Positions 2,459-35,225 are shown, counted from the first letter of the stretch. The stretch: DNA of 64,000 nucleotides from Escherichia phage T2 (NC_054931.1), one strand, 5' to 3'. Notes: generated from the sequence alone by a model not told the origin. Program-made: numbers and translations.

Positions 2459-4278
2459 TACTGGCTCATCCATTCTTTACGAAGGTCAGCATTATCTCCC
2501 ATGAGCATTTCAAAAAGCTCTTTCCAGTTCTCAGGAAGTTTAACAACATCATATACTGGATTTTGAATCATTTCACGATATTCAGATTTTTCCAAAGAGC
2601 CAAGTCCTTTAATATAACGGATGCTATGTTTAGGTAGAGCATCTTTGGCACTCTCATATTCAGCGACTGTATAAAACCATTCTTGTTTTTTACCGACCTG
2701 AGCGATGATTACAGGAGTTTTGACAAAGCGAATTCGTCCTTGCTCAAACAATTCTGGCCAATTACTAAAAAATCCGAGCAGAGAAGGATAAATGCTTCCT
2801 AGACCATCATGGTCAGCATCAGTCATAATAGCAATATTATGATAATTCAAGTTTTCAGCTTTTTCACCAAGAACTAGACCAGTGATTGCGCAAATATCAA
2901 ATAGTTCTTTGTTTTTAAGCATATCGGCATATGACATACCCCAGCTATTAAGAACTTTACCACGCAATGGATAACCACCATGAAGTTCTTTATCACGAAC
3001 ATCAATAAGATATCCGATAGCAGAATCACCCTCAGTCAAGAAAAGAGTAGTATCAGCATCTTTACCACAAAGATTCGCTTTGATATGTTTATGAACCTTA
3101 GCTTTAGAAGCTTTTTTAGCTGCCTTTGTCTCTGCTGCTTTTTCCGCCGCCAATTTACGAGCTAATGCTGCTTCAATAATTGGCATTAAAATTGCTTCAT
3201 TATTTAGAATAGCGCGTGAAATCTTTTTAGCATCAAGTTGAATATGACTACGAATTTCACCAAAAGGAGAAGTAAGTCGTTCTTTAGTTTGAGAGTCAAA
3301 TCGCATGTTTTTCATATCGCGAACAAACATAACGATAGTCAAACATTCTTTAACACGTGCTTTAGTTACATCAATTTTGAATTTACGTTTGATTTGTGGA
3401 ATAAGGTCTTCACAAATATCATCCATAACACAGTCAATATGATGGCCACCATTCTTAGTATGAATGTTATTGACGTACGTCAACTGACGAAAACCATCCG
3501 GTGAACGACCAACCGCAATAGAACAATTTTCTTGTTCTTGAACAATAGCATGTTCATCATACTGTCGTGCATATTTCTTAAAATTGCCCTGAACCTTTTT
3601 ACCATTAAAGGTAAATTGAATATCAGGATAAACTACAGCAAGCGTCTGGAGACGATCAAGTGTAATGTCAAGATAAACTTGGGACAGCTCATTAGTTTCA
3701 AATGACATAAAATCAGGAATGAAAGTAACACGAGTTCCTTTCCATTTTCCAGGAATATCTTCCCATGATTTATTTTCCATGCCATTTGAACAACGAACTA
3801 CAATATTATTTTGACCATCGCCAGTTTCACCGACAAACATCACAGAAAAAATGTTTGTCAAACTAGAACCAACACCATTCATACCACCGGTGACGCGTTC
3901 TTTATCATCACCAAAGTTACCACCTGCTTTTGGAATAGTCCATGCAGCAACTGGACCAGGAATTTCTTCACCAGTAGGTGTTTTAACCATCGCTTGTGGA
4001 ATACCACGACCGTTATCTTCAACTGTTACTTGATTGTTTTTAATAGTAACATTAATTTTATTTGCTAATTTAAACTTAGTACGAATACCTTCATCTACTG
4101 AGTTATCGATAATTTCATCAATAAGCTTAACAAGACCAGGTACATACTGAACACTTTCCCATTTACCAAACAGAAAGCGCTCATGCATTTCATTAGCAGA
4201 AGAGCCAATATACATGCCACTACGCTTTTTGATGTGTTCAATATCGCTCAGAATTTTAATTTCATTCTTAATCATCAC
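2458..4278 (-). CDS. 39: DNA topoisomerase II large subunit (GyrB-like ATPase), gene 39 with gene-60-equivalent C-terminus in one continuous ORF
   Basis: 606-aa ORF; N-terminus KKRSGMYIGSS typical of GyrB family; no interruption. Confidence 0.9.
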   Translation of the reverse strand: MMIKNEIKILSDIEHIKKRSGMYIGSSANEMHERFLFGKWESVQYVPGLVKLIDEIIDNSVDEGIRTKFKLANKINVTIKNNQVTVEDNGRGIPQAMVKTPTGEEIPGPVAAWTIPKAGGNFGDDKERVTGGMNGVGSSLTNIFSVMFVGETGDGQNNIVVRCSNGMENKSWEDIPGKWKGTRVTFIPDFMSFETNELSQVYLDITLDRLQTLAVVYPDIQFTFNGKKVQGNFKKYARQYDEHAIVQEQENCSIAVGRSPDGFRQLTYVNNIHTKNGGHHIDCVMDDICEDLIPQIKRKFKIDVTKARVKECLTIVMFVRDMKNMRFDSQTKERLTSPFGEIRSHIQLDAKKISRAILNNEAILMPIIEAALARKLAAEKAAETKAAKKASKAKVHKHIKANLCGKDADTTLFLTEGDSAIGYLIDVRDKELHGGYPLRGKVLNSWGMSYADMLKNKELFDICAITGLVLGEKAENLNYHNIAIMTDADHDGLGSIYPSLLGFFSNWPELFEQGRIRFVKTPVIIAQVGKKQEWFYTVAEYESAKDALPKHSIRYIKGLGSLEKSEYREMIQNPVYDVVKLPENWKELFEMLMGDNADLRKEWMSQ

Positions 4279-31211: not shown

Positions 31212-32894
31212 TTAAACCATTACAGTAAATCGACCAACTTTCTTCATTTGAAGATGCTGACCATATGCTTGCGGGTCATGGTCTCTATGCGAAATAACAA
31301 AAACATTAGTATTTTTTAAACTATCCAAAATAGTTGAAATAGCTTTTACACCTTCAACGTCGGTCGCTGAATCAAAAACTTCATCAAGAATTAGTGTGTT
31401 TATTTTAACACCTGAAACTTTTTCAGCAATATCACGCCAAGTAAATAAAAGAGCAATATCAATTCGTGCTTTTTCACCTTGACTGAATGAAGCATAACTA
31501 AAATCTTCGCGACCACGGGATTTAATTGTCTCATTAAATTCTTCATCTAATGTAAACACATAATCCGCTTCCATTATTTTAAGATAATGGTTAATCTGCT
31601 TATTAAATAATGGAATGTACTTTTTAATAATAGCACCTTTAATACCAGAATCTTTGAGCATATCAGTCAAAATTCCTCGGTGGTATTTTTCCATTACTAA
31701 ATTAGTTTTTGTCTTAACAATTTTATCAAGTTCTTCTTGAAGCAGTGCTATTTCATCAGCATGGTCAATAAACTCAGAAGATGCTTTTTCTATAGCCGCT
31801 TTAACTTTTTTAGCTTTATCTACTGCTGCGATCAAAGATTGCTTTTTATTGCGAATATCATTTGCCAACGACTGCTGGGTTTTAATATTATCTCGGTATT
31901 CATCAACAAGAACTTTTAAATTATCACGATGTGTTGAAAGCTGTTCAAAAGAATGCGTACATTCAGAAACTTTATCTTTAATTTTAGAAACAACTTTATC
32001 ACCGGAACTCAATTGTGACAAACAGGTTGGACATAATCCACCTTCGTGATACATATTAATGACTTTATTATACGAGTCAATTTTTGATTTAATTAAAACT
32101 GCTTCTTGACCGATTTTATTAAATGCATCAGTCGGGTCTTCGTCTAAAACAATATTAACTAATCTTTCATTAGCTTCTTCTATTTCCGATTTTAGCGTTC
32201 TAGCTTCTTTTGCCAAATCATCATACATATTTTGTAGACGAGTAAGGTTGTCACCAGTTAATTTTTTCTGGCGTTCAACGTTATCATTATATATTTTAAT
32301 TTGTTGGATAATACTATCTTTTTTAACATCAAGCACTTGGTTTTGTGAATTTAATTCACGTATTAGTGCTTTATTAAGCTTATCCATTTCAGCTAATGTT
32401 CCTACCTCAAGCAGGTCTTCCACAAGCTTTCTTCGTGCAGGGGTCGACAAACCCATGAAAGGGGTATACCCTGCTGTACCAAGGACAACAATCTGCTTGA
32501 AACTGGCATATGACATTCCGATAAGCTGTTCAAATTCTGCTTGGAAATCTTTACTGCTGGCAGATTCATTAAGACGTGTACCGTTAACGGTGATTTCGAA
32601 AACGTTTGGTTTTTGTCCTCTTTTGATATAGTACTTTTTCTCATCATATTCCATCCACAGTTCAACTAAAAGTTCTTTCTTATTTGTGCTGTTTATTAAT
32701 TGACCTTTCTTTACATCACGGAATGGCTTGCCAAAAAGCCCAAATGTGATGGCTTCTAACATAGTAGACTTACCACCGCCATTTCGTCCAGTAATAAGAG
32801 TTTTTTGAACCTTATCTAATTGAATGTCAACTCCATTTTGACCAACTGACATTATATTTTTATATTTTACTCTATTAAGTTTAAATGATTTCAT
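31212..32894 (-). CDS. 46: recombination nuclease subunit gp46 (Rad50/SbcC-like ATPase)
   Basis: 560-aa ORF; Walker A GRNGGGKST, coiled-coil centre, CPTC zinc hook, signature and Walker B LILDEVFD. Confidence 0.9.
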   Translation of the reverse strand: MKSFKLNRVKYKNIMSVGQNGVDIQLDKVQKTLITGRNGGGKSTMLEAITFGLFGKPFRDVKKGQLINSTNKKELLVELWMEYDEKKYYIKRGQKPNVFEITVNGTRLNESASSKDFQAEFEQLIGMSYASFKQIVVLGTAGYTPFMGLSTPARRKLVEDLLEVGTLAEMDKLNKALIRELNSQNQVLDVKKDSIIQQIKIYNDNVERQKKLTGDNLTRLQNMYDDLAKEARTLKSEIEEANERLVNIVLDEDPTDAFNKIGQEAVLIKSKIDSYNKVINMYHEGGLCPTCLSQLSSGDKVVSKIKDKVSECTHSFEQLSTHRDNLKVLVDEYRDNIKTQQSLANDIRNKKQSLIAAVDKAKKVKAAIEKASSEFIDHADEIALLQEELDKIVKTKTNLVMEKYHRGILTDMLKDSGIKGAIIKKYIPLFNKQINHYLKIMEADYVFTLDEEFNETIKSRGREDFSYASFSQGEKARIDIALLFTWRDIAEKVSGVKINTLILDEVFDSATDVEGVKAISTILDSLKNTNVFVISHRDHDPQAYGQHLQMKKVGRFTVMV

Positions 32895-32909
32895 TTTGTA
32901 TCCAATTGT

Positions 32910-33762
32910 TCACAATGAAGAAAATTCTTTAACTAAAGCCTGTAATGAAGCCTCTATTGGATATCCATTCTTAACTAACATTTTCCTAAACATCACATGT
33001 TTAGGACGATTATATGATATCCACAATTCATACAATTTATCTTTATTATCCCAATGATAGCCTTTTCGTCTAGATGCTATATGAGCTTTTCTAATCTCCG
33101 GATTTTTCCAACTAGCAGCTACTGAATTTGATATAGCTATTTTATATTCAGGTTGATAAAGCAGCACGAACAGCCTTTTGGTGTTTAATTTTATTTTCTT
33201 CGTTATTAAACCATTCCATTGAAGCCATTGAAATTTTTTGTTTTGTTTTAAAATTATTTAATCTTTCTTTGTTATCTTTCCTATTTTTTGCTACTGAAAA
33301 ATATTTTAATGCCCTTTCTCTAGCAGCATTTCTATTTTGTGGATTTGAATAATACTGTTGAAGCCTTTTTGATATTATGTCACTTACATCCTGTCTTATA
33401 AAACTATATTCAGCAGCTATTAAATCAACTTCGGCTAAAGATAAATTTTTATATGTTTTTCCTGACATCATTCTATTTAAAGCATTTAGCATTTTTCCAT
33501 TTTTACCTTTTGCTAATAAGAAATGTGCTTTGAAATGATTAAAATGACTTAAATTAACTAAATTCCATGTAGATTTTAAATATTCAGGAAATATTGATTT
33601 AGGAAGCACGTGGTGTGCTTCCGTTTTACCTGGAGTTTTAACAGTTGAATTCATAGAAATAAAATTAATGTAAGACTTGGCGTCTTCTTCACTCAACGCT
33701 AATTTTTCAACTAATTCCTTTATTAAAAATTCATCATTAATATCAAGTTTAAAATTCTTCAC
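32910..33762 (-). pseudogene. free-standing HNH homing endonuclease gene split by +1 frameshift
   Basis: 204-aa ORF with HH...N...H motif (EAHHVLPKS...WNLVNLSHFNHFKAH) plus overlapping 85-aa ORF carrying a repeat of the C-terminal motif; span is 3n+1. Confidence 0.5.
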
Positions 33763-34022
33763 AAAAGATTCCTTTTAATGTATCTTTTAGACCATTCTAT
33801 CATATCATCATAATCTAAAAAGTATTCATCAAATTCAGCCATGCAAACAACGCCTTGTGCTGTTTTTGATGTAATATAAATTATTCCAACATATCTAGAA
33901 TCTTCTTCGGTATAATCAATGTTTGCTATGAATTCATCATTAATGTCAAATGTCGAAAACTTCACAGTATGCATCCTTAATACAAGATACAGCCATATCT
34001 CGCAATGATTTAGGTGTGTCAT
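33759..34022 (-). CDS. hypothetical protein
   Basis: 87-aa ORF. Confidence 0.35.
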   Translation of the reverse strand: MTHLNHCEIWLYLVLRMHTVKFSTFDINDEFIANIDYTEEDSRYVGIIYITSKTAQGVVCMAEFDEYFLDYDDMIEWSKRYIKRNLL

Positions 34023-34209
34023 TATCTAAAATGTTGAAGTTAAAGGATACAGCCCAGTCAGTGCAGACCGTAACCTTTTTAATACAATTATCTTCAACCT
34101 CTAGCGGTTCAAACCAATATTCAATAATTTCTTTATGCCCAATATCATCTTTTACTTCACATTCAAAGTGCTGACTCATCATAACATTTTTAAATTCATC
34201 AAAAGTCAT
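33946..34209 (-). CDS. hypothetical protein
   Basis: 87-aa ORF. Confidence 0.35.
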   Translation of the reverse strand: MTFDEFKNVMMSQHFECEVKDDIGHKEIIEYWFEPLEVEDNCIKKVTVCTDWAVSFNFNILDNDTPKSLRDMAVSCIKDAYCEVFDI

Positions 34210-35225
34210 TGTGTTGCCTCTACATATAGCTGATTTGCATATTGAATAAGTGCTTCACGGTCAGAATCAGTGATGTCTGGAATTGCATTAATGTATTCTT
34301 CCATCAATGTCTGAAGCGATTGAACTTCAACTTCTTCACTGTCATCTGACTCGACAGAGTTATCAATCTTTGACACAACTCGTAATGAATGCACAACTTT
34401 CTCTAGTTCAGATTCGAACTTCGTCAGATTTTTGTCTACTTCAGTTACTATAACACGTACTGATAGATTTGTAAAATCTTTATAGTCAATTTTTCCTTTA
34501 AATGGATAATGAATTCTACGATGCCAGGTAGTATTGTTTGGAATAAATTCCATTCGTTCTGTTTCTGTATCAAACATCCAGAACCCACGAGGGTCATTCT
34601 CGTCACCTGCAGTTAGTGTCCATGGTGTCCCAATATATCTGACGTTTGCAGCCTCAGAAATAGTATGGAAGTGACCAGACCACACTTCTTTATAAGTCTT
34701 AAGGAAATCAGGTTCAAGACCATGAGATTTCATTCCTTTATAAAAATAAAATCCATTCAGTTCCCAGTGACCGACGCAAAAAGAAGCAGATGAAGTTTTG
34801 ATGTGTTCAAGAATTTCACCAGTATTTTCTTCGCACATCCAAGGAATCAAATCAATCAAACATCCGTCAAAATCTACTGTAGTAGGCTTATCATATACTT
34901 TAACATTAGGATATTTAGCCAAAAGCTCAGTAGAGGCATTTGGATGCATTACATTTTTATAGTGGAGATCGTGATTTCCTACAATAGTATGTAATGTAAT
35001 TCCAGCATCATCAAGCGTTTGAACTATTTCACGGGCGAACTCCATAGTTTTGTGTGTGATTGCTTTTCGCACATCAAAAATATCACCGTATTGAATCCAT
35101 GTAGTAATTCCATTTTTCTTAGAATATTCTATTGCTTGTTTAATTCCATCAATTTGAATACCGCGAATCCACTCATCATCAGCTTTAACGCCTAAATGCC
35201 AATCACCTAAATTTAAAATTTTCAT
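34206..35225 (-). CDS. 47: recombination nuclease subunit gp47 (Mre11/SbcD-like phosphoesterase)
   Basis: 339-aa ORF; metallophosphatase motifs DWHLG, GDIFD, GNHD. Confidence 0.9.
   Translation of the reverse strand: MKILNLGDWHLGVKADDEWIRGIQIDGIKQAIEYSKKNGITTWIQYGDIFDVRKAITHKTMEFAREIVQTLDDAGITLHTIVGNHDLHYKNVMHPNASTELLAKYPNVKVYDKPTTVDFDGCLIDLIPWMCEENTGEILEHIKTSSASFCVGHWELNGFYFYKGMKSHGLEPDFLKTYKEVWSGHFHTISEAANVRYIGTPWTLTAGDENDPRGFWMFDTETERMEFIPNNTTWHRRIHYPFKGKIDYKDFTNLSVRVIVTEVDKNLTKFESELEKVVHSLRVVSKIDNSVESDDSEEVEVQSLQTLMEEYINAIPDITDSDREALIQYANQLYVEATQ

Follow-up and report, generated by a model that had tools for sequence, protein, structure and literature searches.

The systems that come closest to the element reported here are the free-standing homing endonucleases of phage T4 and its relatives. 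MobE is the Mob enzyme that has been studied experimentally (Wilson & Edgell 2009, PMC2790892). Like the gene-46 element, MobC and MobE are HNH proteins whose genes adjoin essential genes of DNA metabolism. MobC is found at nrdD/nrdG and MobE at nrdA/nrdB in T4, and MobD, which is likewise free-standing and overlaps its neighbours, in the nrdC/tk region, whereas the element described here is located at gene 46. SegF (gene 56), SegG (gene 32) and SegB (tRNA region) of T4, which home without an intron, resemble it in being free-standing, in adjoining an essential gene and in being linked to a particular allele of the flanking sequence. However, they are GIY-YIG rather than HNH enzymes, and their cleavage sites and marker exclusion have been measured, whereas for the gene-46 element both must be deduced. 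Homing endonuclease genes (HEGs) of the HNH type that are split by a frameshift are a common signature, as exemplified by gp115-gp116 of ICP1 (Barth et al. 2023, PMC10448857). In this pair and in the truncated I-TevIII of T4, as at the locus presented here, the nuclease and DNA-binding parts lie in adjacent ORFs as a result of frameshift or truncation, and close relatives differ in the presence of the gene and have unstable alleles. Nevertheless, both belong to other HNH subfamilies and use other DNA-binding modules (AP2 in ICP1), and I-TevIII is intron-encoded.

Petrov et al. 2010 (PMC2993671, Table 5) counted exactly one HEG for T2, in the class 'other HNH', to which T6 and RB51 also contribute one gene apiece, in a table without coordinates. 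These counts match the distribution of the gene-46 HEG and are the sole trace of it that we found. Our literature search yielded no paper on the gene-46 locus, its frameshift, its captured start or its flank patch, and no cleavage, homing or expression data on the element.

In the 64,000-nt stretch of the phage T2 genome that we analysed (NC_054931.1, hereafter the window), the interval 32910-33762 on the minus strand most likely holds a pseudogenised, free-standing, MobD-like HNH HEG inserted at the 5' end of gene 46, a reading to which we assign a probability of roughly 85% (Table 1). The HEG does not lie between genes 46 and 47, as stated in the earlier note, but between 46.1 and 46, with 46.1 and 46.2 separating it from gene 47. 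Gene 46 is presumably its target gene. The 1.6 kb around the HEG are 100% identical to six GenBank records of T2 or its synonym SV76, and show 98.3-98.8% identity to T6, PP01, ECML-134, RB51/RB68 and many other Tequatrovirus genomes.

Table 1. Features of the gene 46-47 region of phage T2 (positions in the window)
Feature	Position	Strand	Remarks
Gene 46	31212-32894	(-)	560 aa, Rad50/SbcC-like recombination nuclease subunit; downstream neighbour of the HEG
Gene 46 nt 18-63 patch	32832-32877	(-)	Abuts the insertion point; T2 has the HEG-linked (T4-type) version
Gene 46 replacement start	32877-32894	(-)	ATGAAATCATTTAAACTT (MKSFKL); new ATG, supplied by the element
9-nt direct repeat	32877-32885 and 33745-33753	(-)	TTTAAACTT; junctions of the insertion
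Spacer	32895-32909	(-)	ACAATTGGATACAAA, 15 nt, between HEG stop and gene 46 replacement start; absent from T4
C-terminal HEG remnant	32910-33152	(-)	Codons 205-284 and stop, +1 frame
85-aa ORF	32910-33167	(-)	Remnant plus five fortuitous out-of-frame codons from the GTG at 33165-33167
N-terminal HEG fragment (204-aa ORF)	33148-33762	(-)	Codons 1-202 of 284, then two out-of-frame codons and TGA; holds the HNH domain and the first helical repeats; PHROG 655 at 5.6e-36
2-nt deletion site	33153-33154	(-)	A2 remaining (plus-strand TT) where intact alleles have A4
HNH (beta-beta-alpha-Me) core	33511-33624	(-)	Residues 47-84: TEAHHVLPKSIFPEYLKSTWNLVNLSHFNHFKAHFLLA
HEG start	33745-33762	(-)	GTGAAGAATTTTAAACTT; gene 46 of HEG-less T4 opens with the same 18 nt (MKNFKL)
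Gene 46.1 (DUF5487)	33759-34022	(-)	Upstream neighbour; stop codon overlaps the HEG start
Gene 46.2	33946-34209	(-)	Pfam T4_Y03C, 2.6e-43
Gene 47	34206-35225	(-)	Flanking ORF
Alpha-glucosyltransferase		(-)	Flanking ORF of the HEG region

As for the neighbouring genes, 46.2 is called 'hemolysin XhlA' in the T6 RefSeq record (L002:1749-2012). Its T2 orthologue is a T4_Y03C protein with no XhlA match in Pfam, so that this name looks like an annotation carry-over. For 46.1, the mechanically called ORF of 87 aa is longer than the 68-71 aa (207-216 nt) given in the records, and DUF5487 matches from residue 20 onwards. Translation of 46.1 probably begins at an internal start that overlaps the 46.2 end. 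Over the whole 64-kb window, the T4 late-promoter core TATAAATA occurs four times, against 11.5 expected from shuffles, and never near the HEG. Scans for sigma-70 promoters and terminators returned background levels only.

We file the HEG product as a putative MobD-like HNH endonuclease on the basis of its motif, its predicted topology and its homology to known families through intermediates. A profile search gathered 131 relatives, and conservation was assessed on an alignment of 119 sequences, in which H50, H51, P54, H76 and H80 are invariant and N67 is near-invariant (at least 90% conserved). The His-Me finger motif comprises a His acting as general base at the end of the first strand, a structural Asn and a metal-binding His in the helix, and the conserved HH...N...H...H columns show the pattern of these nucleases. 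In AF2 models, two strands (residues 47-51 and 68-72) and a helix (73-84) follow each other in beta-beta-alpha order with pLDDT values >90; pLDDT is 79.8 for the full-length model and 90.5 for the model of the N-terminal 110 residues. The HNH signature that had been seen in the 204-aa ORF is thus borne out by (near-)invariant residues (H50, H51, N67, H76 and H80), and a beta-beta-alpha core is predicted.

Among HNH-type profiles, only PHROG models match the HEG protein directly; for the intact protein, the values are 3e-45 with PHROG 655 'homing endonuclease' and 1e-15 with PHROG 12434, an HNH family. Searches of Pfam and NCBIfam with the T2 fragments and the intact T6 protein detected no HNH or other relevant domain, with no HNH match even at E<=10, and PDB sequence searches, with the single protein or with the 119-sequence profile, returned nothing relevant. 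Homologues provide the missing links: 18 of the 119 match Pfam HNH (PF01844) and 59 match NUMOD3. The homologue P0060, for instance, scores 30.4 bits against PF01844 (cut-off 21.4) at its residues 21-45, which align by BLASTP to HEG residues 45-71. No match to the GIY-YIG family was found in Pfam, PHROG or NCBIfam, all homologues being of the HNH/Mob type. The comparison with the T4 Mob and Seg endonucleases that the earlier note had called for revealed similarity to MobC, MobD and MobE (36, 30 and 26% identity, respectively, in tblastn searches against phage genomes, with an E value of 4e-22 for MobC) and none to Seg proteins. Together, the PHROG matches, the Mob similarity, the motif and the predicted core uphold the identification of a free-standing HNH homing endonuclease.

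The copy of MobD in RB3 aligns with residues 47-281 in pairwise BLASTP (30% identity, E=2e-18), i.e. over 83% of the HEG protein length. The match takes in the 'HW..LY.LWI..NRPK...GYP' region, which lies beyond the frameshift in T2. Both proteins have the same order of parts, with an HNH core, helical repeats of the W-x-N-P-E type and a C-terminal 'G-x-HW...LY-x-LWI...NRPK...GYP' region. Nevertheless, the HEG protein has an extra N-terminal two-helix segment of ~45 residues, its HNH loop reads PKSIFPEY..WN rather than the usual P..GG.D..N, and it has no Pfam HNH match, whereas MobD obtains a sub-threshold one. By identity, the closest T4-type paralogue is MobC (Yersinia phage PST copy), the 36% extending over HEG residues 30-236, and the MobC-related cluster P0003 has the exact EAHHVLPKSIFPEY in common with the HEG. 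MobC ends in a NUMOD1/I-HmuI-like helix-turn-helix, unlike the HEG protein. The intact protein comprises an N-terminal HNH core (residues ~47-84), putative NUMOD3-like helical repeats (~125-235) and a C-terminal region as in MobD.

The repeat motif S-x5-6-[WY]-x-N-P-E-x-[RK]-x-x-H is visible three to four times in the HEG protein, at residues ~130-150, 150-170 (a degenerate copy), 177-200 and 209-232, and it is clearer in the homologues of Mosigvirus pEK20 and Gelderlandvirus Melville. Of the claim that these are tandem DNA-binding repeats, the recurrence of the motif holds, but the statistics are marginal and Pfam NUMOD3 (PF07460) is not called in the HEG protein. The score of one repeat against another is reached by 4-7% of pairwise shuffles, that of the N-terminal against the C-terminal fragment by 15% of shuffles, and a small profile-profile comparison of the repeats with hhalign gave P=0.038. 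In sequence, the repeats are compatible with tandem modules of a NUMOD3-like type. It is the intact orthologues, not the repeat motif, that prove the two ORFs to be a single gene.

A 9-bp G+C-rich inverted repeat, GGAAGCAC-GTG-GTGCTTCC, is present at 33602-33622 (+) and was scored as terminator-like on the plus strand. It coincides with the codons for E-A-H-H-V-L-P, i.e. the catalytic His-His motif. The Melville homologue reads QAHHILP at this motif, which implies that its DNA must differ there; the inverted repeat is probably fortuitous.

The two ORFs of T2 are located where the earlier note had placed them and overlap by 20 nt, the 85-aa ORF being in the +1 frame relative to the 204-aa ORF; IAISNSVAASWK is an example of a peptide encoded in the +1 frame of the T2 HEG. 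Over their whole length, both halves align with one 855-nt ORF of T6, B1.1 and others, at 98.7-98.8% nucleotide identity, which excludes chance. The intact ORF of 855 nt and 284 aa is found in T6, PP01, ECML-134 and about 55 other Tequatrovirus records, and the same interval is annotated as a single 855-nt CDS in T6 and vB_Eco-B1.1. Among 60 listed carriers, the length is 855 nt in 53, 853 nt in the six of T2 type and 854 nt in one. The translation of the C-terminal remnant, PEYKIAISNSVAASWKNPEIR...KEFSSL*, is identical to T6 residues 205-284. In a four-way DNA alignment, T6 has TCAAAACC on the coding strand where T2 has TCAACC; the lesion lies at codons 203-204. It had been proposed that a single gene was broken by a 1-nt indel at 33140-33170. 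Both the single gene and the place are correct, but the lesion is a 2-nt deletion, whose effect on the frame is the same as that of a 1-nt insertion. Restoring AA in silico yields a 284-codon ORF; apart from the start codon, five residues of its product are not those of P0001, the commonest intact protein. The T2-specific changes in the HEG amount to four synonymous and three non-synonymous ones, too few to give an independent sign of relaxed selection.

The T2 allele is not the only broken one. RB68 (L003:711-1564) has lost one base at codon 175 (A6->A5), and MLP2 (L018:301-1154) one base at codon 243 (A3->A2). The RB51 region is 1602 nt long, the same length as that of RB68, and RB51 therefore probably carries the RB68 lesion. 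The HEG has thus been broken independently in other phages, at other A runs; the three frameshift alleles (codons 175, 203-204 and 243) each lack one or two bases of an A run, in every case downstream of the part that encodes the HNH core. As for the T2 copy, an intact orthologue, a disrupted frame and six identical records of the T2 type mark it as a pseudogene.

The loss of two A's from the A4 run shifts the frame such that translation stops after 204 residues, stranding the last 80 codons in the +1 frame. The T2 protein would then consist of 202 residues followed by two wrong ones, without the last repeat and the MobD-like C-terminal region. As site-specific DNA binding most likely depends on what is missing, the T2 allele would no longer home. 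We infer a loss of all activity, the N-terminal fragment nevertheless keeping the whole catalytic core.

Of the alternatives, the one that survives best, although we regard it as unlikely, is that the T2 allele is still functional, with reduced or altered activity. The 204-aa HNH fragment might act alone as a nickase, less specific than the intact enzyme, and the completeness of its HNH core, with two to three helical repeats, would agree with this, as would the location of all three independent frameshifts downstream of the HNH domain. However, the three breaks occurred at different positions and left different fragments, as predicted by random decay of A runs, and three events are too few to show a C-terminal bias. 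Alternatively, the two ORFs might be translated separately and reassemble. The GTG of the 85-aa ORF is preceded by AAAGG, 6 nt upstream, but it precedes the deletion, where intact alleles do not code in that frame, and is therefore fortuitous. Finally, an occasional +1 slippage near UCA-ACC-UGA might yield a near full-length protein minus one residue, since LSKPEYK would become LS-PEYK if the ribosome moved by +1 at the stop. Yet the P-site codon is not slippery, as ACC cannot re-pair on CCU, and inspection of the sequence upstream of the stop revealed no stimulatory Shine-Dalgarno. Programmed +1 frameshifting was rejected since both the slippery codon and the upstream stimulator are absent.

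It is far less probable still that the frameshift arose as an error of sequencing or assembly and that the real T2 gene is intact. The lesion does lie in a homopolymer run, a classic error site, but two nucleotides are gone from a run of four, which is not a typical miscall, and the deletion is the same in all six T2/SV76 records, which differ in entry, host and record length and are 100% identical across the region. Their exact agreement indicates a fixed mutation of the T2 lineage rather than a sequencing error. We give practically no credence to the two ORFs being separate, independently evolved genes that merely abut, as their annotation as two CDSs in several T2 records might suggest, since they are not separately conserved: most carriers have one uninterrupted 284-codon ORF, RB68 and MLP2 are broken at other sites, and MobD and the Melville and pEK20 homologues span both parts in one protein.

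The junctions of the pseudogenised HEG reveal how the element is accommodated at gene 46. In T4, which does not have the HEG, gene 46 starts with a GTG that overlaps the 46.1 TGA; in T2, this TGA overlaps the GTG of the HEG instead. The identity of the first 18 nt of the HEG to the T4 gene 46 start implies that the Tequatrovirus HEG has been fused in frame to the resident translation start of gene 46, with its ribosome-binding site, its GTG and six codons. Gene 46 itself now starts on a second copy that came with the element. The homologues of Melville and pEK20 each begin with an N-terminus of their own. A deletion from one copy of TTTAAACTT to the other would recreate the T4 junction exactly.

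The distribution of the HEG among relatives agrees with the description of a mobile element given in the earlier note. Among about 516 Tequatrovirus records with the same flanks, 69 carry the HEG, in every case between 46.1 and 46. A scan of viral contigs for gp46.2 yielded six loci, all without HEG, and it is there that a variant of the adjacent gene 46 sequence came to light. Nucleotides 18-63 of gene 46, located at about 3467-3512 in loci L007-L011, exist in two versions with 13 differences between them, against a background of ~1 difference per 40 nt. All 69 HEG-carrying records have the T4-type patch, and the combination of HEG and variant patch occurs in no record. HEG-less records, about 447 in number, comprise 74 with the T4-type patch, T4 included, and about 360-373 with the variant patch, i.e. 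about 72% of related genomes. Over records counted regardless of their relatedness, the linkage between HEG and patch has a Fisher p of about 1e-45. Together with the divergence of nt 18-63, it is as expected if the target site is located there and is co-converted with the HEG. By sequence, this segment is thus a candidate target site or co-conversion tract, the linkage being silent on which of the empty alleles is sensitive.

Homologues with 44% identity are found directly upstream of gene 46 in Mosigvirus pEK20 (L017:2444-3304) and Gelderlandvirus Melville (L016:2489-3331), each overlapping the gene 46 start by 14 nt (loci L016, L017, L019 and L020). Their presence at gene 46 in three genera ties this HEG lineage to the 5' end of that gene. 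In Gelderlandvirus, the HEG occupies the interval between genes 47 and 46 in 5 of 16 records; S16 has a small ORF resembling 46.1 there, and STML-198 has nothing. Comparing Melville with S16 and STML-198 reveals 24-26 substitutions in nt 1-63 of gene 46, versus 9-16 in the next ~440 nt. The HEG-linked patches of gene 46 are alike across genera, for instance in CTT AAT AGA GTA AAA TAT and in Gln19, and the HEG-less versions have Gln12, Gly19 and Pro21 in common.

The behaviour of T4 MobE, SegB, SegF and SegG (PMC2790892, PMC2330249, PMC2988022) suggests how the intact gene-46 enzyme might operate. In mixed infections, it would nick or cut genomes without the HEG, within or close to the initial ~60 nt of gene 46. 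The genome that carries the HEG would then serve as template for recombinational repair, by which the HEG is copied together with the neighbouring 5' part of gene 46. As the flank is unchanged in T2, this phage has probably kept its immunity to the intact enzyme, and its own copy would represent the decay stage of such a homing cycle. It is tempting to speculate, at somewhat less than even odds, that the mobile unit is a cassette made up of the HEG and a replacement 5' end of gene 46 (~60 nt), and that the four classes of genomes are stages of the homing cycle. This type of cassette, with a similar 5' patch of gene 46, is found in Tequatrovirus, Mosigvirus and Gelderlandvirus. Genomes with the variant patch and no HEG (about 72%) would be those not yet invaded, and those with an intact HEG would be invaded. 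T2, RB51/RB68 and MLP2 would harbour decaying copies, and genomes with the T4-type patch but no HEG would have lost it by deletion between the TTTAAACTT repeats, the co-converted patch being left behind as a footprint.

The gene-46 HEG is an uncharacterised new member of a well-known class, and it is a pseudogene in T2. Several records already label the ORF 'homing endonuclease', and broken HEGs are what the homing cycle can be expected to leave behind. T2 is the losing partner in the classical marker-exclusion crosses with T4. If the gene-46 HEG is the 'other HNH' catalogued for T2, then the only catalogued HEG of this phage is dead, which would fit that outcome. The captured start codon of the target gene neatly illustrates how an essential gene can be entered by a selfish one harmlessly. 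As the HEG is broken in T2, intact in T6, absent with the linked flank in T4 and absent with the variant flank in RB14, four states are available in standard phages, which makes the whole homing cycle easily testable at one locus. The gene-46 locus thus shows the life cycle of a HEG unusually clearly, and it represents a convenient system for studying the homing cycle.
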